A DNA stretch of 32,000 bases from an uncultured Candidatus Saccharibacteria bacterium (GCA_964432405.1 CAYSNH010000001.1:1-32000), one strand, 5' to 3'; numbered from the stretch's first letter, positions 3,639-32,000 are shown. Numbers and translations are program-made. Notes: generated by a model not told the origin, from the sequence alone.

Positions 3639-5090
3639 TTGAATAAACAAGGAGGAACTCTAATTATTGGCGCCGGTCCAGCCGGTCTCGCTGCTGCCAG
3701 CGAACTAGCTCAAGCCAAAAAAAACTTGGCAGTTATTGAAAAAGACGACCAAGTAGGTGGTTTAGCTAAAACTTATATTTTCCAGGAAGGGGAGTTTATA
3801 TTTCGAACCGACAATGGCCCTCATCGCTTCTTCTCTAAAAATCCTTATCTCTATAAATTTATCTCCAAACTCCTTCAGGAACAGTGGCTAGAAGTCCCTC
3901 GTCAAACCCGCCAATATATCGCCGGCAAGTTCTACGACTACCCTGTTCGCCCTCTCCAAGCTCTTGCTAACATCGGCCCTCTCAAAGCCCTTAATTTTAT
4001 ATACCTCTACTCCATCGCCCAGATTCAATACAAGCTACTCAAAAAACCTATTAAAAATTTTGAGGATTATATTATCGCTCACTTTGGTAAAGGATTGGGT
4101 CGTTTCAATATGATCAACTACACCGAAAAGATCTGGGGCGTACCAGCTAACACTATTCATGCTGATTGGGCCAAGCAAAGGATCAAAGGCCTTAGTATCG
4201 GATTATTAATCAAAGCCGCTCTCAAGAACCTACTCCAACCCTTTAAGACTAAACAGGTTAGAACCTTGGTAGATGTCTTCTATTATCCAGAATATGGCAC
4301 TGGTCTTATTTATGAAAAAATAAAAGAGGAGTTGATTGATCAGGGTCATCAGATCCACACCAAAGCCTATCCAACCGCTATTCATCATAACAACAATAGA
4401 ATCGATAGGGTTGTGGTAAGTAATTGTGGCATAGAAGAGGTCTATGAACCTGATTACCTAATAGAATCAATTCCCATCGAAAGCTTTCTTCAACTCCTTA
4501 ATCCCGCTCCACCTGCCGAAATCCAACAAGCTGCTAATAAAGTGAAGTATCGCCATCAGGTCTATCTATTCATCACTCTAGATAGAGATCAGGTCACTCG
4601 TGACCAATGGATCTATTTTCCAGAAACCAATATTCCTTTTGGTCGCATTAGTGAGATGAAAAACTTTAGTCAAAAAATGAGCCCCTTAGGCAAAACCTCT
4701 TTATTTGTCGAGTTCTTTTGTTTCAAAAATGATCATATCTGGAATAAATCTAAAGAGGAGTTATTAGCACTCACTATGAAATATCTTGAATCTTGGGGTT
4801 TTTGCCAAAGATCTGAGGTAATGGGCTGTCATTTGATAAAACAGGAGAAGGTCTATCCTATCTACGACACCAACTATCAAGATTACTTATCAATTATCAA
4901 AAACTATCTCAACCAATTTTCCAATCTATTCTATATCGGTCGACCTGGTCGCTTTCGTTACACCAATCAAGATCACTCTCTTGAAATGGGCATGTTAGCT
5001 GCCAGAAGCATTATCGACAACCAGCGGTATAATATAGATGATGTAGGTAAAGAACAGGAATATTATGAACGAGGCATCTGGAAGAAATAA
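3639..5090 (+). CDS. FAD-dependent oxidoreductase, UDP-galactopyranose-mutase-like / amine-oxidase fold
   Basis: N-terminal dinucleotide-binding motif LIIGAGPAGLAAASEL...IEKDDQVGG. The C-terminal blocks KVYPIYDTNYQDYL and GRPGRFRYTNQDHSLEMG resemble the YP.YD and GRlg.YrY.nMD motifs of Glf-type mutases (from memory). TTG start. Confidence 0.65.
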   Translation: MNKQGGTLIIGAGPAGLAAASELAQAKKNLAVIEKDDQVGGLAKTYIFQEGEFIFRTDNGPHRFFSKNPYLYKFISKLLQEQWLEVPRQTRQYIAGKFYDYPVRPLQALANIGPLKALNFIYLYSIAQIQYKLLKKPIKNFEDYIIAHFGKGLGRFNMINYTEKIWGVPANTIHADWAKQRIKGLSIGLLIKAALKNLLQPFKTKQVRTLVDVFYYPEYGTGLIYEKIKEELIDQGHQIHTKAYPTAIHHNNNRIDRVVVSNCGIEEVYEPDYLIESIPIESFLQLLNPAPPAEIQQAANKVKYRHQVYLFITLDRDQVTRDQWIYFPETNIPFGRISEMKNFSQKMSPLGKTSLFVEFFCFKNDHIWNKSKEELLALTMKYLESWGFCQRSEVMGCHLIKQEKVYPIYDTNYQDYLSIIKNYLNQFSNLFYIGRPGRFRYTNQDHSLEMGMLAARSIIDNQRYNIDDVGKEQEYYERGIWKK

Positions 5091-5466
5091 TCTAAGTTTA
5101 TTCTATTATTACGTCATTTTTGCTGGCATCGCTACGCTAGTGGACTTATCAATCCTCTACTCTCTCACTGAGTTTGGTAATGTGTGGTATTTTCACTCCG
5201 CTATTATTGGTTATTCTGCTGGCATGATAGTTAACTATGTACTCAACAAGTATTTCAATTTCAAAAACTACAGTAAAAGAATAATCTCTCAATTTGGCAT
5301 CTTTACTGCCGTAGCAATAGTGGGATTAGGCCTCAACCAGCTTATCATCTACCTCCTAGTGGAGTTTGCTGATATCTGGTACATGGCTGCCAAAATCATT
5401 GCTATCGGCATCGTGATGTTCTGGAGTTTTTTTGGTCACAAACAATTAACTTTCAAGCATGAGTAA
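5065..5466 (+). CDS. GtrA-family membrane protein
   Basis: 133 aa with four TM helices. FAGIATLVDLSILYSLTE and WSFFGHKQLTFK match the GtrA-like pattern (N-terminal ...DL.lLy.L and C-terminal ..F...r..vF). Confidence 0.75.
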   Translation: MNEASGRNNLSLFYYYVIFAGIATLVDLSILYSLTEFGNVWYFHSAIIGYSAGMIVNYVLNKYFNFKNYSKRIISQFGIFTAVAIVGLGLNQLIIYLLVEFADIWYMAAKIIAIGIVMFWSFFGHKQLTFKHE

Positions 5467-6274
5467 GCCAGATTTCATTGGTCTTGGAGCAATGAAGACT
5501 GGAACCACCTGGCTCCATCAATGCCTCTTAGAACATCCAGAAATAAACTTAGCTGAAAAAGAGTTGAATTTTTTTGGTGATCCAGCCACCTGGTCTAAAG
5601 GTTTTGATTGGTATGAAAAAAAACTTGAAAGCGATAAAAAAATAACAGGGGAGTTTTCGGTTTTTTATCTCGCCCACCCTTTTGTAGCTTCCAGAATTCA
5701 TGAGCGCTATCCAAATACTAAATTAATAGCCTGCCTACGCAACCCAATCGATCGCTCCTTCTCTCACTACCTACATGATCTTAGGTATGGTATTTTTGAT
5801 CAATCGCTAAGTTTTGGTGAAGCAATCAAGAAATTCCCTTATCTCATAGAAGAATCCCGCTACTCCGTCTTTATTAAAGAGTATTTGAAATACTTCTCAT
5901 CTCAACAGATATTACTCCTTATCTATGAAGACTCCCTACAAAACCCTCTTCAATATATTCAGTTGGTTTATAGGTTCTTAGGAGTTGATGATCAATTTAT
6001 TCCTCCCAGTCTTCACAAAAAAATTCATCCTAGCTACAAGCCCCACTTTAATTTATTAGAAAAATTCATCTATCGCAGATCTTTTATACGTCTTGTTAAA
6101 AAATATTGGTTGAGCAGAAAACTCGGCCGAGCAACCAGCCAGTTATTATTCAAGCTTAATAAAAAGCCTGCTGAGCTTTTAGATAGTGATAAAAAAACTT
6201 TGGAAATATATTTTCAGTCAGAAATTAAAGAATTAGAAAAAATGATCGATCGCCCGCTCACACAATGGTTATAA
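5459..6274 (+). CDS. PAPS-dependent sulfotransferase family protein
   Basis: 5'-PSB loop PDFIGLGAMKTGTTWL and 3'-PB motif LRNPIDRSFSHY. It is a paralog of the C-terminal half of the 30027-32000 protein. Confidence 0.8.
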   Translation: MSKPDFIGLGAMKTGTTWLHQCLLEHPEINLAEKELNFFGDPATWSKGFDWYEKKLESDKKITGEFSVFYLAHPFVASRIHERYPNTKLIACLRNPIDRSFSHYLHDLRYGIFDQSLSFGEAIKKFPYLIEESRYSVFIKEYLKYFSSQQILLLIYEDSLQNPLQYIQLVYRFLGVDDQFIPPSLHKKIHPSYKPHFNLLEKFIYRRSFIRLVKKYWLSRKLGRATSQLLFKLNKKPAELLDSDKKTLEIYFQSEIKELEKMIDRPLTQWL

Positions 6275-6275
6275 T

Positions 6276-6983
6276 ATGAAACGTTTTAAATTATTTATCT
6301 ACAACCTATTTTTCTCTCGTCGCCGCTACTCCATGAGAGCAGCTCGTTGGCGTAATGCTTTTCACTTAATGCCTTTTGAGAAGCTACTTTATCGAACTAT
6401 GGCTTTTATACTGGGCAATAGTATAGAAGGTGACTATTTAGAGTTTGGTACCTATCAGGGTCGAAGCTTTGCTAGCGCTCATCATATTGCTCAATTTCAT
6501 AAATTAAAAAATATGAGATTTTATGCTTTTGATTCTTTTGAAGGGTTGCCTGAGATCGAGGGAGTTGATCAAGAGGGGTTTTGTAATTTTACAAAAGGAG
6601 ACTTCCTTTGTTCTCAGGAAAAGTTTAAAAAAATATTAAAAAGAAGAGGGGTTGATCTTAATAAAGTTCAACTTATACCAGGCTGGTTTGATAAAGTCTT
6701 AAATGATGAAACTAAAAAATCCCTACCTATTAAAAAAGCAGCTGTTATCTGGATAGATTGCGATCTTTATGAGTCCACTGTTCCTGTTCTCAATTTCATT
6801 ACGGACTACGTTCAAGATGGCACTATTATTATCTTTGATGATTGGTTTGCTTTTCGCGGCAATCCTAACAGAGGCGAACAGCTAGCTTTTAGAGAGTGGC
6901 TGACTAAAAATCCTCAAATAACCGCCTCTGAGTTTAGAAAGTTTGATTGGAGTGCTAATTCTTTTATTCTTCATCATGATTAA
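6276..6983 (+). CDS. TylF/MycF-type class I SAM-dependent O-methyltransferase
   Basis: GDYLEFGTYQGRSF (SAM-binding glycine motif) and IWIDCDLYESTVPVLNFITDYVQDGTIIIFDDW match the macrocin-O-methyltransferase family signature (D.DlYeST...L). Confidence 0.8.
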   Translation: MKRFKLFIYNLFFSRRRYSMRAARWRNAFHLMPFEKLLYRTMAFILGNSIEGDYLEFGTYQGRSFASAHHIAQFHKLKNMRFYAFDSFEGLPEIEGVDQEGFCNFTKGDFLCSQEKFKKILKRRGVDLNKVQLIPGWFDKVLNDETKKSLPIKKAAVIWIDCDLYESTVPVLNFITDYVQDGTIIIFDDWFAFRGNPNRGEQLAFREWLTKNPQITASEFRKFDWSANSFILHHD

Positions 6984-8604
6984 TATTTTCAAGAAAATAG
7001 ATCGAGGAGTAGATCTTTTATTTAACTGGTTAGAGAACAATACTCTCCTGGCCTTATTTCTCTTTGTGGCTATTAATATCGCTACTCGCCTCACCTATTT
7101 GGCTTTTATTAGCCATTACTCACCTGGTGCTCTGCTGATTAGAGTAGATGGCTATATATACATGCTTAAAAGCCTCGAAATGATACAAGGTAACTGGCTA
7201 CCAATGAGAACTCATGCCTCTGGCTGGCCCTTTCTACTCACCCCCTTCTTCTATCTAATTCAACATAAATCTATTTTTGAAATGATGATCCATGCTCATT
7301 TCTTTAGTACTTTTATTAGCTCCTTAATTATTATTCCTCTTTACTTAGTCAGTAAAGAAATATTTCAAAACAAAAAGGCTGTATTTACCACCCTAATTAT
7401 CTTTACCTGCTTTTTTTGGGCTATCTATGGCTCACTCGGTCTATTTACCGAACCCATCTTCAGTCTTCTTTTATTATTCATTATCTATTTTCTAATTAGA
7501 TATAAGCATCATCCTCGCCATCTAATAACCGCCTCGGTTTTAGCCGGCGTCTCTTATTGGATCAGACCCAATGGTATTTTTGTTTTATTAATCATCCTCC
7601 TAACTCTATGGCTCTTAAGAAAAAAAGTGCCTCACTTTAGATATCATCACCTTTATCAAGCTATATCTATTTTCTTCATTACCGCCCTCCCCTTTCTTTA
7701 TCAACGCTATCTTAACTTTGACTCCCCTTTCTACTATGGCGAAAACAGCAAATATTTTGTTAATGAATACAACCAACTTTGGGGAGCGGCCTATCCTAAC
7801 ATCTCTTTCTTTGAATATTTAAGCTCCCACAGTTTTATTGAGATATTTAATAGATTTATCGTATTTGGCTTTGGTAGCTTAACCTTCAGTGCTCTCGCCC
7901 TCACCTTACCCTTCTCCATCTTCTTCGTTTGGAGTGTTATGAGATTCTTAAAGGATCCTCGCTTTACCAGCTTGCTGGTAACATTAGGTGTTTGGATTAT
8001 TAGCTTCACCCCCATCTATGCCGTTTATTTCACTCCTCGCCATCTCTTTCCCATCCTTCCTATAGCCGCTATTTTGATCACAGCGGGGGTTTTAAGCTTG
8101 GTTAAGTATCTACGCCATCAAAACCTTGTTTTGTTAGCTATCGCCACTACCGGTCTTTGTTTCATTAGCGTCTCCTACTTCTACCCCCAATACTATTTTC
8201 TTGAGAAAACTCCTCGGGAAGCACTAACTATGAGCCGTTGGATTGCTGAAAATGTTCGTGGAAAGATTGCTATGGCAGCTAGCAACGATATTGTGATGAT
8301 GAACCTTCCTGACACCACTATTGCCCAATTAGGCCTTTTTGATCTTAAAGCTCCTCGAACCAACCTTCAGGTTGTCTATCCTGGGAAAATTAATGACATT
8401 GATATACTAACTCAATGGCTTAAAGACAATAAAGTTGACTATTTAGTGGTGGATAGGGACCATATGCCAAGAATTACACCTCAGTTAAAGATATACACAG
8501 GCAAGGTCCTTCCATCTTATTATGAAAAGATTTATCATGATTATAGTGTCAAATCTTCTTGGGAAACAGAGATTTATAAAATTAATTGGAATAAATTTAA
8601 ATAA
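6943..8604 (+). CDS. Polytopic GT-C type membrane glycosyltransferase (ArnT/PMT, GT39/83-like)
   Basis: About 12 or more TM helices. There is an acidic first-loop motif (RVDGYIYMLKSLE) and a C-terminal soluble domain of about 130 aa. An alternative, likelier start is ATG 6976 (MINIFKK), giving an 8-nt overlap with the upstream gene instead of 41 nt. Confidence 0.6.
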   Translation: MIGVLILLFFIMINIFKKIDRGVDLLFNWLENNTLLALFLFVAINIATRLTYLAFISHYSPGALLIRVDGYIYMLKSLEMIQGNWLPMRTHASGWPFLLTPFFYLIQHKSIFEMMIHAHFFSTFISSLIIIPLYLVSKEIFQNKKAVFTTLIIFTCFFWAIYGSLGLFTEPIFSLLLLFIIYFLIRYKHHPRHLITASVLAGVSYWIRPNGIFVLLIILLTLWLLRKKVPHFRYHHLYQAISIFFITALPFLYQRYLNFDSPFYYGENSKYFVNEYNQLWGAAYPNISFFEYLSSHSFIEIFNRFIVFGFGSLTFSALALTLPFSIFFVWSVMRFLKDPRFTSLLVTLGVWIISFTPIYAVYFTPRHLFPILPIAAILITAGVLSLVKYLRHQNLVLLAIATTGLCFISVSYFYPQYYFLEKTPREALTMSRWIAENVRGKIAMAASNDIVMMNLPDTTIAQLGLFDLKAPRTNLQVVYPGKINDIDILTQWLKDNKVDYLVVDRDHMPRITPQLKIYTGKVLPSYYEKIYHDYSVKSSWETEIYKINWNKFK

Positions 8605-8609
8605 AAAGT

Positions 8610-9224
8610 ATGACTAAAAAATCTTCTGGTAGTTTTAAGGTAACTGTTAGTTTATTAATATTTTTTCTCTTTGTTTCGGTACTTACCACCTCCTCTCTTA
8701 TGAGGTCTTGTTTTGCTGATAATACTAGCAGAGGCTTTTTATATAAAAGAATTAGTAATTTTATTTGCGGCTCCGATGTTAATATTCATCGCAGTTATTA
8801 TCGTAGACTAGGCAATGATGAGCTATCTATTGAGAGTAATGTTAATGAATCAGAAGAATTTAGTGTTACCGCAGGAACAACAGCTGATAAACTAATAGAT
8901 GGATCTAAGGAAACTAGAGCTGCGCCAGCTAATCATGACTTTGATTACACTATTGGCTTAACTGATATTTATAACATTAATAAAGTTAATTTAAGTTGGG
9001 GAGATGATGGCCGAACACCTGAATATATAGACTCCTGGAAATTAGAGTCCTCTATTGATGGAGAAAACTGGGAAGTTGTTGATTTTGGTGGCTTTCCTAA
9101 AGAGGTGGAGACATCTGTTAATGAGAACTTTGTTGCTTCAATGTTAAGATTATCAGGTCACTCTGAAAAACAATGGATTGGAGCAAATGAGGTTGAAATT
9201 ATTGGTAAGCCTATTCAGAAATAA
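8610..9224 (+). CDS. Secreted protein with F5/8 type C (discoidin, galactose-binding-like) domain
   Basis: Signal peptide VTVSLLIFFLFVSVLTTSSLMRSCFA. The domain blocks AADKLIDGSKETRAAP...INKVNLSWGDD...SWKLESSIDGENWEVV...LRLSG...WIGANEVEIIG are typical of discoidin/CBM32-like modules. Confidence 0.7.
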   Translation: MTKKSSGSFKVTVSLLIFFLFVSVLTTSSLMRSCFADNTSRGFLYKRISNFICGSDVNIHRSYYRRLGNDELSIESNVNESEEFSVTAGTTADKLIDGSKETRAAPANHDFDYTIGLTDIYNINKVNLSWGDDGRTPEYIDSWKLESSIDGENWEVVDFGGFPKEVETSVNENFVASMLRLSGHSEKQWIGANEVEIIGKPIQK

Positions 9225-9235
9225 AAATAATCTAA

Positions 9236-11131
9236 ATGAATAATTTTTTCGAGGCGACTTTTATGTCGTCTTTCCTTTTTACTTTTTTAATACCAGGCCT
9301 TCTTCTTAGTCTCATCTTGATACCTAAAAAAGAGCTGCCTCTAACTCTCCTTCTAACCTATACAACCGTACTAGGTTTTTTTTCACAACTCAGCATCGGC
9401 ATCATAAGCAGCTTCTCTGGCCAACTAATCAATAACTCATCATTAAATATAACTTTAATATCTTTACTATTTATCGCTTGCTTATTAGCAATCTTATTTA
9501 AATCTCAAAAACACAAACCAAGAAATCTAAAAAAGATTATACGAATCTCTTCTTATGATATAGCGGTCATCATATTAATGGTTGTTGTTATGGCTTTGTT
9601 TTTATCCAACATAAAAGCAATGGACAGGCCGTATTTTAACTCTGCCACTGATCAATATCTATGGCTTAGTCAAGCCGAGTCACTTCTTGTGAATCCTCTA
9701 CCTGCATTTATTAAAACCGCTCATCCTTTTTCTGTTTATAAACACTCATTCTCATACATACTAGCTACACTTGTTCCTTTTGTAGAAAAGACTGTAGATA
9801 ATTATCAAAATTTAATTATTTTTCTATCTTGTTTATTTTATGGTCTATTTGTTTTAATAGGAGCTCAATTAGGTAGATCTATTTTTAAATCATCAGCCCT
9901 AGGACTATTAACCCCTCTGTTAATGCTGTCATTCCACTTTAATAATTATTATTTAGCCTCAACAGCTGTCGTGCCCCAAAATATAGGCCTATTATTGTTC
10001 ATATTTGGCTTTATATTATTAAATCATCTCCAAGATTGGAAAAATGAACCGAAGAAAGGAGTTATTTTATCCGTTATATTTCTTTCTATTTTTTACCTTA
10101 TTCACTCCCCCTCTCTAATTATTTTTCTTTTATCACTAGGATTAGCAAATATATTAATCTTTATTTTATCATTCATATCTCAAAGATTTGGGAAAAAGCC
10201 TATCAAGCAAAGACTAACCGTTCTTTCATTATTTGCTATACCTCTTGTTGTTATAGCTGCTATTCGCTATCTACTATATTACACAAAGATTTTAGGTTTT
10301 ACCGATCCCACAACCATCAACAGATACCAGGACTACATCAAGCCCTTGTCTATTTTTAGCCATTCTTATATGACTTGGCATGAGACTGCTATTATATGGC
10401 TTGCTATCATCGGTTTTATCATTATCGCTATCAAAACCATTCTCAACAAAAAAGAGGACTCTCGTATAATTTTATTATGTAGCTTCATCTTATTATTATG
10501 GATCTTTAACACCTTACAGCTAACCTATTTTGCTATTTATGCTAGCTGGCAAGCCTTTCGCTTCAAATTATTTATCTACCCAGCTTTTGCCATCGGAGCC
10601 CTAACCACTATACACTTCTTAATTCTTTTATTTAGAAAAAACTCTTTCACTATTTCTAAATTATTAACCATCTTATTTGTTATATTAATAACGCCTCAGC
10701 TGTTAATTAAAATTAGCGACCACCAAAAATTGGTTGTTTTAGATATGATTAGAGGAAGAGATAGTTATATTGATCGCATGGAAAAATATCAAGACCAATT
10801 CCAAGAACTCATGGCTGCTAAAAAATATATTGATGAAGATAATGAAAGAGTTGTTTTATTTATAGGCAAAGAAATTAGTCACACTTATGGCCGCTGGATA
10901 TTTTCACCTCAAAAATTCTATGTCACCTATCAATGCCCATCCTATAGCGAATGCTTAGCAAGTGATAGTATTAATAATGAAAAATCTCATCTATCAGGTA
11001 TTGATGCTGATCTAATAATATTAGAAAAGCATCCTAAGCTGATTAAAAATCTATCCGAAGATATCAAAAAGGAATTTAAAATTCAAAAAGAATCTTCTCA
11101 ATTTTTATTTTATTTTAATCAAGAAATATGA
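9236..11131 (+). CDS. Large polytopic membrane protein (631 aa); candidate glycan polymerase or GT-C-like enzyme
   Basis: About 14 hydrophobic helices followed by a soluble C-terminal domain of about 130 aa. I recognised no diagnostic motif. It lies between a lectin-like protein and a Wzx-like flippase. An alternative start is M10 (9263). Confidence 0.5.
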   Translation: MNNFFEATFMSSFLFTFLIPGLLLSLILIPKKELPLTLLLTYTTVLGFFSQLSIGIISSFSGQLINNSSLNITLISLLFIACLLAILFKSQKHKPRNLKKIIRISSYDIAVIILMVVVMALFLSNIKAMDRPYFNSATDQYLWLSQAESLLVNPLPAFIKTAHPFSVYKHSFSYILATLVPFVEKTVDNYQNLIIFLSCLFYGLFVLIGAQLGRSIFKSSALGLLTPLLMLSFHFNNYYLASTAVVPQNIGLLLFIFGFILLNHLQDWKNEPKKGVILSVIFLSIFYLIHSPSLIIFLLSLGLANILIFILSFISQRFGKKPIKQRLTVLSLFAIPLVVIAAIRYLLYYTKILGFTDPTTINRYQDYIKPLSIFSHSYMTWHETAIIWLAIIGFIIIAIKTILNKKEDSRIILLCSFILLLWIFNTLQLTYFAIYASWQAFRFKLFIYPAFAIGALTTIHFLILLFRKNSFTISKLLTILFVILITPQLLIKISDHQKLVVLDMIRGRDSYIDRMEKYQDQFQELMAAKKYIDEDNERVVLFIGKEISHTYGRWIFSPQKFYVTYQCPSYSECLASDSINNEKSHLSGIDADLIILEKHPKLIKNLSEDIKKEFKIQKESSQFLFYFNQEI

Positions 11132-12859: not shown

Positions 12860-12869
12860 AAAATCTAGG
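12851..12869. terminator. Short hairpin at a convergent gene junction (possible bidirectional terminator)
   Basis: CCTAGAT (12851-12857), AAAAA, ATCTAGG (12863-12869). The TAA of the flippase and the TAG (minus strand, 12865-12867) of the dehydrogenase fusion both lie inside the hairpin. The stem is only 7 bp with low GC and no clear U-tract. Confidence 0.3.
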
Positions 12870-20789: not shown

Positions 20790-20813
20790 AATAGAGCCTT
20801 TTTAAGTGACAAT

Positions 20814-20877: not shown

Positions 20878-20883
20878 GATAAT
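20878..20883 (+). promoter_or_regulatory. Possible -10 box GATAAT for the GT8-like gene (near-leaderless)
   Basis: GATAAT ends 9 nt before ATG 20893. No SD motif. Confidence 0.3.
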
Positions 20884-20892
20884 CATAAATAC

Positions 20893-24082: not shown

Positions 24083-24098
24083 TTTTAAATTAGTTAAA

Positions 24099-25919
24099 TT
24101 ATATAGTTACTTTATACTTCTTAGCCCAGATTTGAAAAATTAATAAGTTCCAAATAATAATTAAATTATATTCTTTTTTTTCTTTATGATTCTGCAAGAT
24201 CTTTTTAATAGCCTGCCAATCAAATAGATTTTTGGTTGGTGAATAATATTCTTCTGATAAAATTTTCTCAACCATTTCATAAATTTTTGGACGACGCAAC
24301 CATTTAGCCCCAGGTGATATCCAGCCTCTTTTTGGCTGATGATATAAAAAGGAGGGTAACTCTCTTTTAAATGCTTCTTTTAAAATTATCTTTGTATTAA
24401 AAACATTAACCTTATTTGAAACAGGTATTCTATTAGCCATTTCTACCACCCTTTTATCTAATAAAGGAACTCTAATCTCAAGACCATGAGCCATACCCAT
24501 CTTATCAGTTCTCATCAAACATTCGTCAACCAGCCAAGTAGAGCGATCAGTTCTCATAAATGAATCTACAAAGCTCTCTCCTTTTTTCCAATTATAATTA
24601 AAAAACTCCTTAGGATAGTCATTTATATAATCCCTTTTAACAATCTGATCTAATAATGATTTTTTTTGAAACATAAACCGCTGAAACATTGCAAATCCTA
24701 ATAGATTATCTATTCTTTTCAATTTTTTATTAAAATTAAATAATTTTCTAAGCCATTGAGGCAGCTTGTTGTATGTCTCCACTATTTTGCTATAACGATA
24801 ACGCTTATAACCACCAAGCAACTCATCACCTCCATCACCCGCTAACACAACACTCACTTTCTGCTTGGTAAATTTAGCCAAACTAAACATAGCTACTGTA
24901 GTTGGATTAGCAATTGGCTCATCAAGGTGCCAAACTATTTTCTCTAAGTCTTCTAAAAGATTATTTTCAGAAATATATAAATTATTATGATCTGCCTTAT
25001 AATAATCAGCTGTTTTCTTTGCCAACTCAGCATCATCATTAAATTTTTTACTCTCTTCTTCCTCATTCAACTCATACCCAGCTGAGAAAGTATTAACCTT
25101 GTCTCTAATCTTAGTCACGCAATTCAAAATTGAAGTCGAATCAAATCCTCCTGAAAGGTAAATTCCCAAGGGGCGATCAGAAATTAATTGTTTTTTAGTA
25201 GCCTGACAAATCTCATTTTTTAACTCCCTAGCTAATTCTTTTTTAGATTTTTCAACTAGCTTCTCATTAGACTCCTCCCAATACCTTTCAACGTCAAATT
25301 GATTATTTTTCAAAGTAGCTCTGTGAGCCGGCATTAATTTAAAGATATCCTTAAACATAGTTTTAGGACCAGGAACATAAAGAACTCTTAAATATAAATT
25401 GAAGGCATCCTTATCCAAAATTCTTGGCACATCATGCTCCAAAATAGCTTTAATCTCTGAAGAAAAAATAAACTTATTACCATCCCAGAAATAATATAGA
25501 GGTTTAACTCCCATGTGATCTCTAGCTAAAAATAATTCTTTATTTCTCTCATCCCAAATAGCAAAAGCAAAAATACCTTCAAAATACTCCACGCACCTAC
25601 CTCCCCATTCCTGATACGCAGCTAAGATAACTTCCGTATCACTATCACTTCTAAAACTATATTTATCCTTTAATTGTTCTTTTATTTTTTTAAAATTATA
25701 AATCTCGCCGTTATAAGTGATAATCAAATTACCCTCAGCGCCCTTCATTGGCTGAGAAGCTTGCTCGCTGAGATCTATAATGCTCAATCTATTATGACCT
25801 AAAGAAATATTGTCATTAATAAAATGGCCCGTACCATCTGGGCCACGATGTTGAGTTGTCTCGTTCATTTTAAGAAGCAGCTCTTTGTTATTAAAATTAA
25901 AACCATTAATTGCGCACAT
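24099..25919 (-). CDS. Asparagine synthase (glutamine-hydrolysing) family amidotransferase, AsnB-like (second copy)
   Basis: MCAINGF nucleophile Cys2, YNGEIYNF, and the PP-loop YLSGGFDSTSI. 606 aa. Confidence 0.8.
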   Translation of the reverse strand: MCAINGFNFNNKELLLKMNETTQHRGPDGTGHFINDNISLGHNRLSIIDLSEQASQPMKGAEGNLIITYNGEIYNFKKIKEQLKDKYSFRSDSDTEVILAAYQEWGGRCVEYFEGIFAFAIWDERNKELFLARDHMGVKPLYYFWDGNKFIFSSEIKAILEHDVPRILDKDAFNLYLRVLYVPGPKTMFKDIFKLMPAHRATLKNNQFDVERYWEESNEKLVEKSKKELARELKNEICQATKKQLISDRPLGIYLSGGFDSTSILNCVTKIRDKVNTFSAGYELNEEEESKKFNDDAELAKKTADYYKADHNNLYISENNLLEDLEKIVWHLDEPIANPTTVAMFSLAKFTKQKVSVVLAGDGGDELLGGYKRYRYSKIVETYNKLPQWLRKLFNFNKKLKRIDNLLGFAMFQRFMFQKKSLLDQIVKRDYINDYPKEFFNYNWKKGESFVDSFMRTDRSTWLVDECLMRTDKMGMAHGLEIRVPLLDKRVVEMANRIPVSNKVNVFNTKIILKEAFKRELPSFLYHQPKRGWISPGAKWLRRPKIYEMVEKILSEEYYSPTKNLFDWQAIKKILQNHKEKKEYNLIIIWNLLIFQIWAKKYKVTI

Positions 25920-25921
25920 GA

Positions 25922-28198
25922 TTATGTAATTAAATTAACTAATGATTTTAAATTATTTTCCCAACTATACTGCTGAACATTTTTGTAAGCAGTATCTGAC
26001 AATCTTTTCCCTAAGCTCCTATCATTCAATAAAAGTTCAATCTTTTTTCTAAGATCCTCAACATCACCTAGATTAAAAAGAAAGCCATTCTCTCCATCAT
26101 TAATGATTTCCAAGTTACCACCTACTCTAGTAATAATAATTGGTAAACGAGCAGACATGGCTTCTAGGACAACGTGAGGCAAGCCCTCATAAGAAGTATT
26201 AAGAACGAATACATCAGCCTTCTGCATGTATTGATAAACTTTATCTTTAGCAACCTTACCTGTTAGCTGAATGTTATTATTCAATCCTAAATCATTTATT
26301 TTATTTTGTAATTCATTTCTTAAAGGCCCATCACCTACTATCAATAAAAGTAAATCTGGACTCTCCTTAACTAACCGACTCATCAAATCAATTAATTGAC
26401 CAAAACCCTTCCAATCTACCAAACGACCAACTGAAAGAATAGTTGGTCTATCAGAAAACTCTTTTTTATCCACCACAGAAAGATTAGTGGCGTTATAAAT
26501 AACCTCAATCTTATCCTCCTTAACGCCCCATTGCTGTACTATGCTTTTGAGATAGCGACTAGGAACAATAATTCTCTTGCTACGATTACATACAAACTTT
26601 TGCACCATTCTCATAATGCTAATAATAAAAGGAAAGCCTCCTCTCTTTTGGAATTCATCAATATTATCAGTTGCTACCTTCCTATTGCGAGCCATCTCCC
26701 AAGAAGGATCACCAACAACCTTTAAGAAAAATCCTCTTCCTGTGACTAAGCTCGCTAGAGCACAAGGCAAGCCTGAGCTCACCGGACCTTGGCAATAAAT
26801 AGCATCATTTTTTTTCATCAACTTCATTAATTGCCAAAAATAGACTCCGTAACGAGTTAAGCGACTACGATATCTGAAAATCCTCTTGATATAATAAGGC
26901 TCAAAAGAATCTTTTTTGTCATTGGCATAGCAAATAACATTGACCAGAGAGCCTTGCCTTGTTAATTCATCAGCTATTTTTTTAGTATAGGTTGCCGGAC
27001 CACCAATATCAGGTGGGAAGATACCAGCTGCCAAAAGAACCCTTTTATTTAAAAGTTTATTAAGCAAACTTCTCATCTTCTCTGATAACAATTCCCAATT
27101 ATATTCTTGAACTACCATTTCCCTACCATTCCTTATTACTCTCTCACTTAATTGAACATCATTAATCATCTTGAATAAGCTATCAGCTATAGATTGTGGA
27201 TCACCAGGTTGGCAAAACAAGCCATTAACCTCATCAATTAAGAAATCAGGAATGCCCCCCACTGGAGTCGCTATAACTGGCAATCCAACAGCCATTGCTT
27301 CTAGAAAACTATTGCCCAATCCTTCCGATAAAGAAGGTCTAATAAATATATCTGATGTAGCTAAATATTTTGGCACTTCTTTTTGATCTACGAACCCCGT
27401 TAAAATAACAGACTCTTCTAAATTATTATCTTTAATAATTTCTTCTATTTTAACTCTCTCACTACCTTCTCCTAATATTAATAGTTTTAGAGGTAAGTCT
27501 AATTTGTTTTTTAATAAAGCAAATCCTTTTACAAGATCACTCACGCCATTTTTAGATTCTAAACGAGAGGTTGTAATAATTATTTTTTCCTCTTCTTTAA
27601 TATTTAGCTTATTCCTCAACTCCATTTTTTCCTGATCAGAAAAAGATTGTGTGAACTTATCAATGTCAACGCCATTAGGAATAATAGTAATTGGTCCTTG
27701 ATAACCAAATCGCCAAGCTCTTTGAGCTAAATAATTACTAATAGAATGAATGTAATCTGCTTTTTTATAAATCGCCTTATATAAAGGACTCCAGAAGAAA
27801 GTTTTTCTTCTTATCTTCTCTTCCGTATGACCTTCTTGAGTTGTTAATAGATAGGGAGTTTTTAAATTAAACCATTTAAAGAAAAGATTGGTTAAGGTCG
27901 CTGGATTAGCCATCACTCCCCAAGTCATATCAAATTTTTCTTTCCTATTAAGTTTTAACGCCTTCAATAAAGCTGGGATGGTCATTATATATTTATCTAA
28001 ACCTCTGACTCCCAAGCCAACTCTAATAACCTTAATGTTATCAATCATTTCCTCTCTAGCTAATTTTCTATCATTCCAACAAGTAATAAGGGTAAACTCA
28101 AATTCAGGCAGGCGCTTACACACCTCCTTGATAGCCACCTCAGCACCACCTACATAAGGAAAATATTCTAGTGATAAAATTAAAATTTTCTTTTTCAT
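25922..28198 (-). CDS. Tandem double GT4 glycosyltransferase (two complete GT-B modules in one 758-aa protein)
   Basis: Module 1: MKKKILILSLEYFPYVGGAEV ... SEGLGNSFLEAMAVGLPVIATPVGGIPDFLIDEVNGLF. Module 2 starts near RVLLAAGIFPPDIGGPATY (about nt 27045) and contains YEGLPHVVLEAMSARLPIIITRVGGNLEIINDGENGFLF. Confidence 0.8.
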   Translation of the reverse strand: MKKKILILSLEYFPYVGGAEVAIKEVCKRLPEFEFTLITCWNDRKLAREEMIDNIKVIRVGLGVRGLDKYIMTIPALLKALKLNRKEKFDMTWGVMANPATLTNLFFKWFNLKTPYLLTTQEGHTEEKIRRKTFFWSPLYKAIYKKADYIHSISNYLAQRAWRFGYQGPITIIPNGVDIDKFTQSFSDQEKMELRNKLNIKEEEKIIITTSRLESKNGVSDLVKGFALLKNKLDLPLKLLILGEGSERVKIEEIIKDNNLEESVILTGFVDQKEVPKYLATSDIFIRPSLSEGLGNSFLEAMAVGLPVIATPVGGIPDFLIDEVNGLFCQPGDPQSIADSLFKMINDVQLSERVIRNGREMVVQEYNWELLSEKMRSLLNKLLNKRVLLAAGIFPPDIGGPATYTKKIADELTRQGSLVNVICYANDKKDSFEPYYIKRIFRYRSRLTRYGVYFWQLMKLMKKNDAIYCQGPVSSGLPCALASLVTGRGFFLKVVGDPSWEMARNRKVATDNIDEFQKRGGFPFIISIMRMVQKFVCNRSKRIIVPSRYLKSIVQQWGVKEDKIEVIYNATNLSVVDKKEFSDRPTILSVGRLVDWKGFGQLIDLMSRLVKESPDLLLLIVGDGPLRNELQNKINDLGLNNNIQLTGKVAKDKVYQYMQKADVFVLNTSYEGLPHVVLEAMSARLPIIITRVGGNLEIINDGENGFLFNLGDVEDLRKKIELLLNDRSLGKRLSDTAYKNVQQYSWENNLKSLVNLIT

Positions 28199-28200
28199 AA

Positions 28201-28980
28201 TTATCTTTTAGTCCAATCCCAATAACCGCTGATAACAGACTTCCACATCCAAATTGGATCAGTTAAACTCAGACCGGTACGAGAAACTATAAAACTATTT
28301 TGATTTCTATTAACCACTCCCGAAACAAAAGAAAAAGAGTTCTCAAAACCTATCTTTTTCAAGAATTCTCCTAATTGATGATTAAGATTATTATTCTCTC
28401 CAAAAGGATAGGCAAACCACCTAACCTTTTTACCAATCAATTTTTCTAGATTCTGCTTATCTCTTAAAATCTCAGATTTCAAAAAGTCATTTGAAAAATC
28501 CTGGCCTAAATCAACATGATTCACTGTATGACCACCTATCTCAAATAAACTATTCTCAGCCAACATCTTCACTTGATGACTACTAATCAAATTTAAAGAC
28601 TGTCGTCTCATTAATTTATTTTTAACAAAATCATTAGCCTCGTCACCTGTTAAATCAATTAATCCAGAACAAACAAAAAAGGTGGCTGGTATATTTAGTT
28701 CTTGTAAGACGGGCTGTGCATTAGTTGCCCAGTTAGCATAACCATCGTCAAAAGTAATGGCTATCTGATCATTGCCATTCTCAGATAACAATCTTCCTAG
28801 AGGTACAATTTGATAATTACTTTTTAACCATCTCATTCTTTCTCTAAATAAATCTTTATTTTGAATATCATGAAAAACAATAATTCTGTTAGCTGAGGAA
28901 CTTGCTCGTGACAAAAATTGCCAACCATAACAAATAGCTAGCCAAGATTTTTTAATTATTTTTTTTATTTTATTTTTCAT
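28201..28980 (-). CDS. Polysaccharide deacetylase (CE4/NodB homology domain)
   Basis: NodB motifs ITFDDGYANW, GGHTVNHVDL and FAYPFG. I chose the start at ATG 28980 (MKNKIKK), which gives an 11-nt overlap with the upstream gene. The ORF track extends to 29034. Confidence 0.8.
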   Translation of the reverse strand: MKNKIKKIIKKSWLAICYGWQFLSRASSSANRIIVFHDIQNKDLFRERMRWLKSNYQIVPLGRLLSENGNDQIAITFDDGYANWATNAQPVLQELNIPATFFVCSGLIDLTGDEANDFVKNKLMRRQSLNLISSHQVKMLAENSLFEIGGHTVNHVDLGQDFSNDFLKSEILRDKQNLEKLIGKKVRWFAYPFGENNNLNHQLGEFLKKIGFENSFSFVSGVVNRNQNSFIVSRTGLSLTDPIWMWKSVISGYWDWTKR

Positions 28981-30025
28981 GATTATTAATTTCAGTAAAA
29001 ATCTTGTTAACCAATAAAGTTGTTGTATGACCACGTCTAACTATAGCTCTCAACTCCTCACCCAAAGACAATCTTTCTTGGTCGCTAAGAATTAGCAATT
29101 TATTTAACTTATTTATCTGATCATCAAAACTATTTTTATCAACAATTAATAAAGCCTTTAGGTGATCCGGCAATATCTCTGCTACACACTGATTAGGAGT
29201 TAAGATTGGTAAACCACAAGCCATTGCTTCTAAAACAGCTTTGTCCAAACCACCTTCATTGAAACTAATAAAGATTTTGTGCTGACTTAATAATGATGGC
29301 AGCTTATCTTGGCTAACAGGCTCTCGAAAAAACAACTGATCCGTTAATGCTAGATCATCTCTCTGATTCACTAATTTATTTTTAAATTGCTTATCATTTT
29401 CTAAAGTTGGACCATAAAAATTGATCGCGAGTGATTGCCCAAACCTTTCATTATATTTAGCAGCTAAGTCTAATATCTTATCTAGACCCTTAACCGGTGA
29501 ATAACGCCCCGTTGTTATTAGATCAGCCTTCTTTTCAGCAGAAATAATTCGAAAAAGATCCGTATCAATACCGTGACCAATAACCCTTACATTATCCAAG
29601 TTCATGGCAAAAGAACTAGGGGTGGCGGTAAATATACTATCTAAACAAAAACGTGCCTGAAATTTCATTAGCGGGCTAATGTAAGAATGAGTCTTCCATT
29701 GATGAACTTTTTTTCCAAAAAATAATCGAAATGGTAATAACATGGCTGCATAAGGACCACCCATATGAACAAAATATAAATCAGTTTTTCTCAAATTTCT
29801 AAATATTTCTTTATAAAAATTAATAATTGATAAGAAATTATTACTGCCTTTGATAGTTTTAACGATTACATTTTCTGGCAAAGAAAATTCTCCAGCTCTT
29901 AAAGCTAAAACTGTTATCTCTTTTATTTCAGGTCGATAAGAAAATTCTTTTATCCAATTAACAGATACCGCCAATAATGGATCATTCTTATCAACCGCCT
30001 GACAAATAAAAATAATGTTTTTCAT
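28970..30025 (-). CDS. Glycosyltransferase, GT-B fold (GT4/GT1-like)
   Basis: C-terminal EGGLDKAVLEAMACGLPILTPN (E-x7-E region). N-terminal Rossmann-like MKNIIFICQAVDKNDP. 351 aa. Confidence 0.7.
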   Translation of the reverse strand: MKNIIFICQAVDKNDPLLAVSVNWIKEFSYRPEIKEITVLALRAGEFSLPENVIVKTIKGSNNFLSIINFYKEIFRNLRKTDLYFVHMGGPYAAMLLPFRLFFGKKVHQWKTHSYISPLMKFQARFCLDSIFTATPSSFAMNLDNVRVIGHGIDTDLFRIISAEKKADLITTGRYSPVKGLDKILDLAAKYNERFGQSLAINFYGPTLENDKQFKNKLVNQRDDLALTDQLFFREPVSQDKLPSLLSQHKIFISFNEGGLDKAVLEAMACGLPILTPNQCVAEILPDHLKALLIVDKNSFDDQINKLNKLLILSDQERLSLGEELRAIVRRGHTTTLLVNKIFTEINNHEK

Positions 30026-30026
30026 A

Positions 30027-32000
30027 TTAAATATTCCAACTGTCTATTTTGTAACCGACAATGGCCTCCAACTCCTTTATCTCTTCTGTAAACAAATTCT
30101 TCAATCTTTGACGATCTAAGTCACTCAAACCATTAGCAACCTTTTTGTCCACCTTAGTATTAACAGCTAATATTTTTCCTGCTAAACCTTTCTTTTTAAT
30201 TAGCCACCAAAGCTTATGCATTCCTAATAAGCGCATCCCTTTAGAAATGCGAACAAACAATCTATCCAACCAAACCAATCTTGGCACTCTGCCCATATTT
30301 ACCTTCTTATTTAAAGAAGATGAAAGGAAGTCGTCATTCACACCAATAAATTGATAAATCTTTTTCATAAAAGCAGCTGGATCCTTTTTAATATCCTCAT
30401 GAATTAATATGAGAATATTATCTCTAGAAAAAAATCTTAGATAATTTTTTAAATGAGTAGCGTACATACCATTAATAACATACTCATCTCTCTCTACTAA
30501 AGCTTCTGCAAATGGGACTGAGGACTTCACCTTACCAGCCATAATATCATTTACATAATTAGAAAAAGCTCTCTCTACTGGATTTCTAAGTACCACTATC
30601 AACTTAGTGTCTGGATATTGCTGATGTATTCTTTGTGGAGTTTCTCTATCAGCTAAATATGAAGTTGAAAACTCTCCTATCTTTTGATCTTTTTTAGCAT
30701 CAGTAAAAATACCTTCATACCAACCATAACCCTTAGGCCAGTTTCTTTCTCTGCTAAAAAAATGAATCTCTTTTATTGGTGAATGAATTTCTGGATGCTC
30801 ATAAAGACAAGAGTAGATCCAAGAAGTTCCTGAACGCTGTGCGCCTAAACCAATAAAGTCTGGCCCTCTACCATCCCCGACCAAAGAAAAAAGATTATTA
30901 TAATTTTCAAGATATGAATGAGAAGAGAAAAAGGATTTTGCAAAATCCCTACCTCTTTCTCCTATAGCCCTTGTCTCTTCTGGTCGTCGAATCAACTCTA
31001 ATAAATTGGCTGACAAGGCATTAACATCTCTAGCCTCCACCAATAAACCTGTTTTCCGATGATCTATTAAATCAGGCACCCCACCAACTCTCGTACCAAC
31101 AACTGGCAAGCTGGTAGCCATTGCTTCAAACACTACCCTTCCTAAACCTTCAGACAGGGAAGGTAAGGTAAATATATCAGCTTGTGAAAATATACCAGCC
31201 AACTCTTCCTGACTGACCTCCCCCAAAAACTCAACACCATCAACAATATCTAGTTGGCTAATAAGATCTCTCAAACTTTTAACATACTGCTGATCATCCT
31301 CCCTGCCAACTATTAATAATTTAGCTTGAGGAAATTCATCCTTCACCTGCTTGAAAGCTTTGATCAAATACTCAACACCCTTGATTGGAGCAAGGGCGCC
31401 AGCAAAAACAATCTTTCCACTCATCTCCCTATCAACTCTCTCAACTTTTTCAAAAACATCCATATCAGTCCAGGCTGGGAATTTAACTATTGGCACATTA
31501 TTATTCCAGTTTTTTAATTGATCAACTGTTGCCTGAGAAACGCCTCTTAATGCATCAGCTCTCTTCAAAGAAAATCTTGCTAACCAATTGAATATTTTTT
31601 TATTAGACCTGCTGCCAGAAACTTTTTTCTGAATAAAGATAGAGTTTTCAAAGTCTCCGTGATTTTCAATAACAAGCTTGATCTTCTTATTACCAAAAAA
31701 ACTAGCGATAGTTTTGGTTAGAGCTCCAACAAACCCTTGATACGGATCTTGAGCAATAATTATATTAGCTTGATACTTTCTTACTAAACGAAGAGCAATA
31801 ATAGCCCCTATAGAAGAAAGCAAGAGGAATCTTAAGCCTCTGGATGGTAAGCGAGGTAAGAGATTGAATTGAGCATGGTTTTTAAAGCTCAAAAACTTTT
31901 TTTTATTAGAAAAGGCAACTACAAACACATCCCTTGAAGAAGATAAGAGTTCGAATTTCTTTTCTGTAGTTTTATTTAAAGGAAAATCATAAGTGGTAGT
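30027..32000 (-). CDS. Fusion protein: GT4 glycosyltransferase + C-terminal sulfotransferase (5' end beyond the window)
   Basis: GT4 block SEGLGRVVFEAMATSLPVVGTRVGGVPDLIDHRKTGLLV. From about nt 30880 downward there is a sulfotransferase with PDFIGLGAQRSGTSWIYSCL (5'-PSB) and LRNPVERAFSNY (3'-PB). The reading frame stays open from the GTG at 31928 to nt 32000 (TTTYDFPLNKTTEKKFELLSSSRD...), so the true start is off-window. Confidence 0.8.
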   Translation of the reverse strand, partial: TTTYDFPLNKTTEKKFELLSSSRDVFVVAFSNKKKFLSFKNHAQFNLLPRLPSRGLRFLLLSSIGAIIALRLVRKYQANIIIAQDPYQGFVGALTKTIASFFGNKKIKLVIENHGDFENSIFIQKKVSGSRSNKKIFNWLARFSLKRADALRGVSQATVDQLKNWNNNVPIVKFPAWTDMDVFEKVERVDREMSGKIVFAGALAPIKGVEYLIKAFKQVKDEFPQAKLLIVGREDDQQYVKSLRDLISQLDIVDGVEFLGEVSQEELAGIFSQADIFTLPSLSEGLGRVVFEAMATSLPVVGTRVGGVPDLIDHRKTGLLVEARDVNALSANLLELIRRPEETRAIGERGRDFAKSFFSSHSYLENYNNLFSLVGDGRGPDFIGLGAQRSGTSWIYSCLYEHPEIHSPIKEIHFFSRERNWPKGYGWYEGIFTDAKKDQKIGEFSTSYLADRETPQRIHQQYPDTKLIVVLRNPVERAFSNYVNDIMAGKVKSSVPFAEALVERDEYVINGMYATHLKNYLRFFSRDNILILIHEDIKKDPAAFMKKIYQFIGVNDDFLSSSLNKKVNMGRVPRLVWLDRLFVRISKGMRLLGMHKLWWLIKKKGLAGKILAVNTKVDKKVANGLSDLDRQRLKNLFTEEIKELEAIVGYKIDSWNI

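Follow-up and report, generated by a model that had tools for sequence, protein, structure and literature searches.

We examined a 32,000-nucleotide (nt) stretch of DNA from an uncultured Candidatus Saccharibacteria bacterium (GCA_964432405.1 CAYSNH010000001.1:1-32000; hereafter the window), which a first-pass annotation had described, from position 3639 to its end, as a surface-glycan locus. We find that this interval is most of a real cell-surface glycan island of ~33 kb in marine Patescibacteria, the candidate phyla radiation (CPR). At its centre lies a gene for a 701-amino-acid (aa) fusion protein, the C-terminal part of which is KdsB, the synthetase of cytidine monophosphate (CMP)-activated 3-deoxy-D-manno-oct-2-ulosonic acid (Kdo), and the N-terminal part of which (residues 1-459) we call X. 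X probably represents a new glycosyltransferase (GT) family, and the Kdo cassette in which it recurs is an unexpected one for candidate-phyla bacteria. The explanation that we favour for the whole, and consider probable, is an envelope-glycan island of Patescibacteria that contains a recurring Kdo cassette and in which X acts on CMP-Kdo. Patescibacteria make up a large share of bacterial diversity and are host-attached, so that their surface is the interface, and their envelope glycans are essentially unknown; here genuine Kdo-pathway genes appear in the loci of a group that is not known to make lipopolysaccharide (LPS).

The interval is part of a contiguous glycan island

When every open reading frame (ORF) of at least 100 aa in the window (n=28) was scanned with Pfam and NCBIfam, the gene inventory of the first-pass annotation was recovered almost item by item (Table 1), and its main reading, a large composite envelope-glycan locus with broad tailoring chemistry, was borne out by the domain assignments. 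Coding is almost gap-free from position 3639 onward, as the ORF listing of the window shows. An ENA scaffold of 243 kb, which ends ~5.2 kb upstream of the window, contains the window as its positions 5226-37225, and parts of the window are found again, 98-100% identical, in assemblies of other samples by JGI and Logan. The scaffolds seen were 228-393 kb long. Because these independent assemblies (ENA, JGI and Logan) reproduce it, the window is not an assembly chimera; the four multi-domain fusions noticed at first are identical in them and are real. The island spans from position 3639 to ~37,100 in window-equivalent coordinates, i.e. ~4-5 kb beyond the window end, which cuts its last gene; the locus itself therefore stands, but the ~28 kb originally assigned to it fall short.

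The taxonomic origin of the island could be read from two conserved proteins. PduO, encoded in the window, and a ribonucleotide reductase (RNR), encoded on a contig that matches 9 kb of the window with 100% identity, both have as cluster mates at at least 90% identity proteins that NCBI labels "Patescibacteria group bacterium", and one mate at this level carries a Tara Oceans gene identifier. The candidate-phyla origin proposed at first is thus upheld, and because the cluster mates are Patescibacteria, the possibility that the contig belongs to a diderm lineage with a described serotype cluster does not apply.

Relatives at 69-93% identity keep the same gene order wherever their contigs overlap, and one of them, L013 (74% identity in X), is syntenic over the whole locus, bar strain-variable genes. 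The GC content is 0.33 in the island versus 0.38-0.39 in both flanks; such a drop is a usual trait of surface-glycan loci. The minimum, 0.26, falls on the gene for a 164-aa membrane protein. Family assignments, fusions, synteny, taxonomy and strain variation of the island are matters of direct observation.

X is a predicted GT-B-fold domain of an undescribed family

KdsB occupies residues ~463-691 of the 701-aa protein, and no Pfam or NCBIfam model matches X. In an AlphaFold2 model of X (pLDDT 82.8, pTM 0.83), a hydrophobic helix at residues 61-85 is followed by two Rossmann-like halves. Foldseek returned 233 matches to this model in the PDB at E<=1e-3, and the top 50 listed were all GT-B-fold enzymes, among them UDP-GlcNAc 2-epimerases, MurG, BshA, PglA and TarL, with TM scores of only 0.37-0.47. 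A profile of X searched against PDB sequences found only UgtP (GT28), at E 1.7e-4 and over the C-terminal half. On the strength of the model, X is best described as a membrane-anchored GT-B-fold domain of an undescribed family. Its invariant or near-invariant residues are D101, R207, Q227-H228-G229, E308, R336 and G378-x-Y-x-T382. A 36-sequence alignment of X (A2) was too diverse for a pattern scan, and a second alignment (A1) was used.

The apparent size of the family depended on the search. A word-indexed homologue search with X found only 10 sequences; an exhaustive profile search found 1905 representative clusters, at least 365 of them at E<1e-30. Nearly all of these homologues are stand-alone proteins of ~485 aa, the fusion to KdsB being limited to the window's clade. 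Cluster look-ups of 10 family representatives gave no names, and a scan of genome contigs with the 701-aa fusion retrieved only relatives of KdsB, in Planctomycetia, Eisenbacteria and Omnitrophota. Two homologues deviate in form. P0002, which is 84% identical, is a 465-aa protein on a 2.7-kb contig that ends where the KdsB domain would start, and may represent either an unfused form or a gene call cut short. In L060 (2236-3665), X appears as two ORFs (285 and 176 aa) directly upstream of KdsB, reflecting either a frameshift or pseudogene or a sequencing error.

X recurs in a Kdo cassette across Patescibacteria

A metagenome scan for X yielded 52 loci, and gene neighbourhoods were counted in 48 independent loci that lie outside the clade of the window. 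In 28 of them, and in 18 of the 24 in which X is flanked by four or more genes on both sides, one or more Kdo-pathway genes lie within six genes of X. Immediately upstream of X stands KpsF, an arabinose-5-phosphate isomerase, in 18 of 48 loci, and immediately downstream a MetW-like methyltransferase in 19. Within six genes of X we found Wzx (23 loci), AsnB and a GT8-like protein (17 each), a Wzy_C+TPR protein (14), GT9 (10), KdsB, KdsC and a 2-oxoglutarate (2OG) oxygenase (7 each) and KdsA (5). Neighbours of X exceed the NCBIfam cut-offs for KdsA, KdsB and KdsC, and the genes can be directly contiguous: the order is KdsA–X–KdsB–KdsC–methyltransferase–Wzy_C in L020, X–KdsB–KdsC in L019 and KpsF–X–KdsA in L063. 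More commonly, the cassette reads GT8–AsnB–KpsF–X–methyltransferase–2OG oxygenase–Wzx–Wzy_C/TPR, often with GT9 in addition. Where housekeeping neighbours could be named, the loci were Patescibacteria in three of three cases (L063 and L026, "Patescibacteria group bacterium"; L042, Candidatus Kaiserbacteria).

The centre of the window, with its GT8-like protein, AsnB, KpsF, X, 2OG oxygenase and Wzx, is one instance of this Patescibacteria cassette. In the window's clade, the Wzy_C/TPR gene is replaced by genes for clade-specific membrane proteins of 164 and 631 aa, and many GT4 modules, two sulfotransferases, a CE4 deacetylase, a GT-C protein and a discoidin protein are added. The first-pass annotation had missed that the partner of KdsB in the fusion is a GT-B-fold domain and that the cassette recurs in Patescibacteria.

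Two further members of the cassette have invariant motifs. The GT8-like protein has an invariant D94-P-D96 motif, and the window copy is 45-57% identical across distant loci, which exceeds the identity of X in the same loci (24-34%); its best PDB match, the GT8 enzyme 5gvv, reaches an E-value of 0.03 only. The 2OG oxygenase-like protein, so named in the first-pass annotation, holds up despite a sub-threshold Pfam score, in that an H165-x-D167...H239 triad and R251 are invariant in nine sequences (the window and eight homologues); it recurs downstream of X in 7 of the 48 loci, and its profile found nothing useful among PDB sequences.

Several features of the wider set of loci deserve mention. 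In L012, L024 and L027, X is accompanied by a 2-hydroxyacid dehydrogenase (2-Hacid_dh), an SDR epimerase, a HAD phosphatase, a cytidylyltransferase that resembles PseF and not KdsB, and a GFO/IDH/MocA oxidoreductase, all as separate proteins, with neither KpsF nor KdsA in view; this variant may make a different CMP-activated acid sugar. In L028, L039, L044, L049, L058, L063 and others, the cassette ends with Wzx followed by Wzy_C+TPR, with SecA within 1-4 genes and, in several of them, MurB nearby, which suggests a conserved chromosomal neighbourhood among related Patescibacteria. A recurrent 847-aa neighbour was rejected as a member of the system since it is this SecA, a housekeeping border, and a gene of ~245 aa downstream of X, considered as a cytidylyltransferase, proved to encode the MetW-like methyltransferase, which depends on S-adenosylmethionine (SAM).

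The recurrence of the cassette bears on whether the island is a unit. It could instead consist of two or three independent glycan modules that happen to be adjacent in a variable region: a GT-C decoration module (3639-11622 plus a GT2/DUF2304 pair in the flank), the Kdo cassette (12865-21747) and a GT4-rich module (21701 to ~33,200). The genes do form three or four transcription blocks on alternating strands (plus at 3639-12859, minus at 12865-20789, plus for the GT8-like gene at 20893-21747, and minus from 21701 to the window end). Elsewhere the cassette is found with neither the GT-C/F5-8C nor the sulfotransferase-fusion genes, and single GT4 and AsnB genes are gained and lost between strains. 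Against such a division stand the synteny of the whole arrangement in L013, the presence of one Wzx for the entire island, and the clustering of GtrA, the FAD oxidoreductase, GT4s, TylF and sulfotransferase with the cassette in L032, L038, L057 and L062 (in L057 and L062, homologues of the FAD oxidoreductase adjoin GtrA near it). We regard separate modules as possible, if somewhat doubtful.

X most likely acts on CMP-Kdo

Because X sits in Kdo operons and is fused to KdsB here, it most likely uses the product of KdsB. The fusion in the window's clade constitutes a Rosetta-stone link, and judging by gene context X is most likely a CMP-Kdo-dependent transferase joined to its own donor synthetase. 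CMP-Kdo is chemically labile, so the fusion plausibly channels it. Within the locus itself, the isomerase (KpsF) and KdsB of the CMP-Kdo pathway score above their cut-offs, and KdsA and KdsC are seen beside X in related loci.

Several points weigh against this reading of X and of the island, and are gathered here. X has no Pfam match to GT30 (Glycos_transf_N) or GT107 (Capsule_synth) and no membership in the known Kdo-transferase families of WaaA (GT30), KpsC/KpsS (GT107) and WbbB (GT99), and its top 50 fold matches appear generic for GT-B enzymes, with no specific similarity to a Kdo transferase. Neither kdsA nor kdsC was found within the ~55 kb examined (the window and ~23 kb of flank), and Kdo synthesis in the window organism is accordingly putative. 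In most related loci KpsF is the sole Kdo gene beside X, without KdsA, KdsB or KdsC, and the neighbourhood counts come from crude ORF calling and phmmer probes, with key neighbours confirmed by Pfam and NCBIfam. The route of assembly is likewise uncertain, no phosphoglycosyltransferase, Wzy or chain-length regulator having been found. As to the first-pass description of the polymer as ulosonic-acid-containing, KpsF and KdsB are confirmed, but with kdsA and kdsC absent from the region, the ulosonic acid itself is something that we infer.

Some of these points would also fit a different enzyme. X might not be a Kdo transferase but a TagF/TarL-like phosphotransferase or polymerase, or another GT-B enzyme, whose substrate would be a different cytidine-activated or arabinose-5-phosphate-derived compound and whose product would be a teichoic-acid-like or otherwise non-Kdo polymer. 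Among 36 X members searched against Pfam (E up to 1), the only hit was a sub-threshold one to Glyphos_transf (TagF-like) in two, at E 0.026, and this sole repeated hint is joined by TarL among the fold matches. KpsF also stands beside X far oftener than the other Kdo genes (in 14 of the 24 better-covered loci, against 4-5 for KdsA, KdsB or KdsC), and the L012/L024/L027 sub-variant combines X with a PseF-like cytidylyltransferase. The TagF-like matches are, however, far below threshold, the cytidylyltransferases adjacent or fused to X score as KdsB above curated cut-offs, and at least eight loci have genuine KdsA and KdsC on the flanks of X. We therefore consider a non-Kdo role of X quite unlikely.

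We also considered whether the fusion of a GFO/IDH/MocA oxidoreductase to a 2-Hacid_dh in the window might replace KdsA, by making a "pentulosonic" 2-keto-pentonic acid from arabinose-5-phosphate in analogy to Epd/PdxB. This is unlikely because the distant locus L036 has KdsA in addition to this fusion, and because X has genuine KdsA and KdsC at its flanks in other loci. The two halves of the fusion are separate neighbouring genes in L012 and L024.

Going further, X may tentatively be proposed as a new family of CMP-Kdo transferases that starts a lipid-anchored, LPS-core-like glycoconjugate (Kdo, GT9, GT8, GT4 and a Wzy_C-type ligase) in Patescibacteria, although on present evidence this is rather doubtful. 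If it were true, Kdo-based envelope glycolipids would be a widespread CPR trait, and the window's clade would have built on it by sulfation, amidation and methylation, with CMP-Kdo channelled through the X::KdsB fusion. If X is a Kdo transferase at all, it would be a new GT family and would offer a handle to label or detect CPR cells, e.g. with Kdo-azide.

A possible route of assembly

From gene content we infer a scheme that covers the substrate of X, the order of the steps, the acceptor and the final structure of the glycan. KpsF would supply arabinose-5-phosphate, from which Kdo would be completed by KdsA and KdsC encoded outside this region; the KdsB domain would then form CMP-Kdo, and the membrane-anchored X would hand it directly to a membrane-bound acceptor. 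This last transfer could be the initiating step of the glycan and would account for the missing phosphoglycosyltransferase. No initiating phosphoglycosyltransferase (WecA/MraY or WbaP/Bac_transf type) was found in the window, the 5.2 kb upstream or the ~18 kb downstream, and no member of the WecA/WbaP, Wzz/Wza/Wzc or Lpx families matched any of the scanned window ORFs; the first-pass annotation, which had seen no initiating, chain-length, export or LPS genes, was right in this, and the search of the flanks that it had proposed brings no initiating transferase to light. The predicted membrane anchor of X and the absence of such an enzyme would fit a role for X in starting the glycan on an acceptor in the membrane. 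KpsS likewise starts on phosphatidylglycerol.

Extension would follow on the cytoplasmic face, by seven GT4 modules (six in the window, one just beyond it) and the GT8-like enzyme. The glycan would be tailored there by two sulfotransferases dependent on 3'-phosphoadenosine 5'-phosphosulfate (PAPS), one of them fused to a GT4, and by TylF, the AsnB enzymes, the 2OG oxygenase, the GFO::2-Hacid_dh fusion and, perhaps, the CE4 deacetylase. Neither the GT4 and GT8 steps nor tailoring that depends on PAPS, SAM, glutamine or 2OG would be possible outside the cytoplasm. As the two AsnB amidotransferases could neutralise carboxylates, the polymer's charge is uncertain. Wzx would flip the lipid-linked glycan, and outside the cell GT-C-type proteins (PMT_2, the 631-aa protein and a 471-aa protein in the flank) would transfer or decorate it, supplied with polyprenyl-phosphate sugars by a GacI/GacJ-like GT2+DUF2304 pair together with GtrA. 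The product may be bound by the discoidin-domain protein.

The 631-aa protein, put forward at first as a candidate polymerase, did not bear this out. It has only seven homologues, six at at least 68% identity and one at 35%, and no Wzy_C match. The best PDB folds for its AlphaFold2 model (pLDDT 65.9, pTM 0.71) are the GT-C enzymes STT3A, DPY19 and AftA (E 0.03-0.4, TM 0.32-0.38), with neither Wzy nor WaaL among the top 50 fold matches listed. It thus appears weakly GT-C-like and is not recognisable as a Wzy; as Wzy proteins diverge strongly, it could be a divergent one. In the window's clade (L013-L017), the 164-aa protein has a constant place between it and Wzx.

Such a GT-C-like protein might also be an oligosaccharyltransferase. 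The island would then serve the glycosylation of a protein (an S-layer protein, a pilin or another), with a Wzx-flipped oligosaccharide moved whole by the 631-aa or PMT_2 protein here and by the Wzy_C+TPR (PglL/PilO-like) proteins in other Patescibacteria. No Wzy polymerase or chain-length regulator is present; STT3A is the best fold match of the 631-aa protein, the island encodes a PMT_2 GT-C, Wzy_C/TPR proteins lie beside Wzx in 14 of 48 related loci, and genes for a type IV pilin and a PilM-like protein lie ~10 kb beyond the island end. The match to STT3A is, however, weak (E 0.034, in a model of pLDDT 66), and the WWDxG motif was not found on reading the 631-aa sequence. No acceptor protein was identified, and the many GT modules point to a large or heterogeneous glycan. 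Protein glycosylation is an unlikely function, and an envelope glycan remains our preferred reading.

Comparison with known glycan systems

By analogy of function, the locus recalls three known systems at once: Wzx-dependent loci of the O-antigen type, capsule initiation by KpsF/KpsU/KpsS/KpsC, and decoration by GacI/J/K/L. Group 2 capsules of E. coli and Neisseria are made with KpsF, KpsU, KpsS and KpsC and carry a β-Kdo linker on lyso-phosphatidylglycerol. Like these, the island places a dedicated KpsF isomerase and a CMP-Kdo synthetase inside a surface-glycan locus, and its adjacent GT-B transferases would dispense with a phosphoglycosyltransferase in starting the glycan on a membrane lipid. 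Unlike KpsS and KpsC, X lacks the Capsule_synth (GT107) signature and is joined to the synthetase in one protein; Wzx would serve for export in place of a KpsMT ABC transporter with KpsED, and the organism is a Patescibacterium.

The inner core of diderm LPS is built by KdsABCD, WaaA (GT30), WaaC/F (GT9), GT4 and GT8 core transferases and the WaaL ligase. The Patescibacteria cassette similarly joins Kdo genes to GT9, GT8, GT4 and Wzy_C, the O-antigen-ligase family. In contrast to an LPS locus, however, lipid A (Lpx) genes and WaaA/GT30 were seen neither in the window nor among the top families of 150 neighbours in related loci, the window's clade lacks GT9 and Wzy_C, and the core set of the cassette includes methyltransferases, AsnB and a 2OG oxygenase. 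Patescibacteria are, in general, described as having neither an outer membrane nor LPS. A literature search of incomplete coverage for Kdo, KdsA or arabinose-5-phosphate isomerase in Patescibacteria, CPR or Parcubacteria found nothing relevant.

In the group A carbohydrate system of S. pyogenes, which Rush et al. are said to have described in 2017, GacI is reportedly a GT2, GacJ a DUF2304 protein, GacK a Wzx-type flippase and GacL a GT-C enzyme. The island has a GT2+DUF2304 pair in its flank, and GtrA- and Wzx-type flippases and polytopic GT-C-like proteins in the window. The component set GacI/GacJ/GtrA/GT-C is complete, with GT2 and DUF2304 in the flank and GtrA and the PMT_2 GT-C in the window, and their coupling would follow by analogy. 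Unlike in the Gac system, this set would form only one branch of a larger island, and there are no rhamnan backbone genes (RmlABCD, GacB-G). Finally, the island shares with Wzx/Wzy loci for O-antigens, capsules and exopolysaccharides a Wzx flippase, many GT4 modules, tailoring enzymes, a low GC content and strain-level gain and loss of GTs, but differs from them in that the window and ~23 kb of flank contain no phosphoglycosyltransferase, recognisable Wzy, polysaccharide co-polymerase (Wzz/PCP) or outer-membrane export protein (Wza/OPX).

Strain-level variation

Two adjacent GT4 proteins of the window are 60% identical overall, and only ~50% identical outside a perfect 300-nt repeat shared by the 3' ends of their genes. 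L006 and L013 have a single GT4 at this position, and contig L001 ends inside the repeat. The repeat and the siblings with a single GT4 point to recombination-driven gain and loss of GTs or to domain swapping. Similarly, the 617-aa AsnB is present in the window and in L001, and absent at this position in L013-L016 (74-93% identity); in L017, an AsnB instead follows an extra methyltransferase. The turnover of GT4 and AsnB genes among strains suggests that the cell surface is under diversifying selection, as O-antigens are.

Gene content of the island and its flanks

The genes of the island are listed in Table 1. Its GT content within the window is seven GT-B-fold modules, the GT8-like protein, the PMT_2 GT-C and one weak GT-C-like candidate. 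All of the at least eight GT modules counted in the first-pass annotation were recovered, but the count was short, as X is a further GT-B module and the 631-aa protein is weakly GT-C-like; the Wzx-like flippase that it had named is likewise recovered.

Table 1. Genes and repeats of the glycan island in the window (positions counted from the first nucleotide of the window)
Feature	Position	Strand	Evidence
FAD-dependent oxidoreductase (amine-oxidase/GLF-like, PRK07208.1-4 type)	3639-5090	+	Amino_oxidase 2.2e-17; NF005548 447 bits vs cut-off 389
GtrA-family small membrane protein, candidate polyprenyl-phosphate-sugar flippase	5065-5466	+	PF04138 2.9e-24
Stand-alone PAPS-type sulfotransferase	5459-6274	+	Sulfotransfer_1 6.3e-17
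TylF-type SAM O-methyltransferase	6276-6983	+	PF05711 1.7e-19
Polytopic GT-C glycosyltransferase, PMT_2/ArnT-like	6943-8604	+	PF13231 30.7 bits vs cut-off 26.1
F5/8 type C (discoidin, lectin-like) protein, membrane-anchored or secreted	8610-9224	+	PF00754 4e-11; N-terminal hydrophobic segment
631-aa polytopic membrane protein with C-terminal soluble domain, clade-specific	9236-11131	+	no Pfam/NCBIfam match
164-aa small multi-pass membrane protein	11128-11622	+	no family match
Wzx-type flippase (MOP superfamily)	11582-12859	+	Polysacc_synt PF01943 7e-17
GFO/IDH/MocA oxidoreductase (N-terminal)::D-2-hydroxyacid dehydrogenase (C-terminal) fusion	12865-14973	-	PF01408 9.4e-25; PF02826 1.6e-41
2OG/Fe(II) dioxygenase-family protein	14970-15854	-	weak PF13640, 19 bits vs gathering score 27
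AsnB-type glutamine amidotransferase, 617 aa, strain-variable	15879-17732	-	TIGR01536 362 bits
X::KdsB fusion, 701 aa	17719-19824	-	NF003952 259 vs 193; TIGR00466 189 vs 155
KpsF/KdsD-type arabinose-5-phosphate isomerase (SIS + 2 CBS domains)	19821-20789	-	TIGR00393 264 bits vs cut-off 204
GT8-like GT-A glycosyltransferase, DPD motif	20893-21747	+	PF01501 26.6 bits vs 24.3, marginal
GT4 glycosyltransferase, extra strain-variable copy	21701-22894	-	PF00534 2.9e-38
300-nt perfect direct repeat	21728-22027; second copy 22952-23251		identical 3' ends of two GT4 genes
GT4 glycosyltransferase	22949-24082	-	PF00534 2.5e-36
AsnB-type glutamine amidotransferase, clade-conserved	24099-25919	-	TIGR01536 472 bits
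Tandem double GT4, two complete GT-B modules	25922-28198	-	PF00534 6e-91 over 2 stretches
CE4 polysaccharide deacetylase	28201-29034	-	PF01522 1.5e-24; gene callers: 259 aa
GT4/GT1-like GT-B glycosyltransferase	28970-30025	-	PF00534 6.4e-16
GT4::sulfotransferase fusion, 5' end cut by window end	30027-32000	-	PF00534 7.9e-41; PF00685 3e-22

The FAD-dependent oxidoreductase is the first gene of the island, with the housekeeping gene for TruB directly upstream. Both sulfotransferases have legible PAPS-binding motifs in their translations: GAMKTGTTW (5'-phosphosulfate binding) and LRNPIDRSFS (3'-phosphate binding) in the stand-alone protein, and GAQRSGTSW and LRNPVERAFS in the GT4 fusion. Gene callers place the start of the PMT_2 GT-C at ~6976 (542 aa). 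The GT8-like gene, on the plus strand, and the neighbouring GT4 gene, on the minus strand, converge, and their 3' ends overlap by 47 nt (21701-21747).

Beyond the window end, the island can be followed in L006, which is 100% identical to window 22952-32000. A look-up of the 633-aa ORF left by the cut at the window end found no record, since the gene in full encodes 673 aa. It encodes, in order, the full-length GT4::sulfotransferase fusion (673 aa), a 381-aa GT4 and a 115-aa DUF2304 protein paired with a 220-aa GT2 (Pfam E-values of 2.1e-18 and 6.8e-23, respectively), and further on a 471-aa polytopic membrane protein, a 95-aa DUF1616-like protein and a 417-aa secreted glycine-rich protein. The downstream border of the island follows with a class II RNR and then FtsZ, FtsA and housekeeping genes. 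Still further, ~15-18 kb past the window end and beyond FtsA, FtsZ and RNR, L066 (1-3355) carries type IV pilin-like (N_methyl) and PilM-like genes, whose products would be candidate acceptors if the island serves protein glycosylation.

Upstream of position 3639 lie genes for TruB, three small membrane proteins, PduO and two secreted cysteine-rich or acidic proteins. The three small membrane proteins, between PduO and TruB (2247-2940), are a DUF5652 protein, a DUF5676 protein and one without a family. The two adjacent genes at 274-1585 encode secreted or anchored cysteine-rich proteins, the second with a long Asp/Gly/Asn low-complexity C-terminal tail; by coordinate arithmetic, a 228-kb JGI contig starts within this second gene, at ~1550 of the window.

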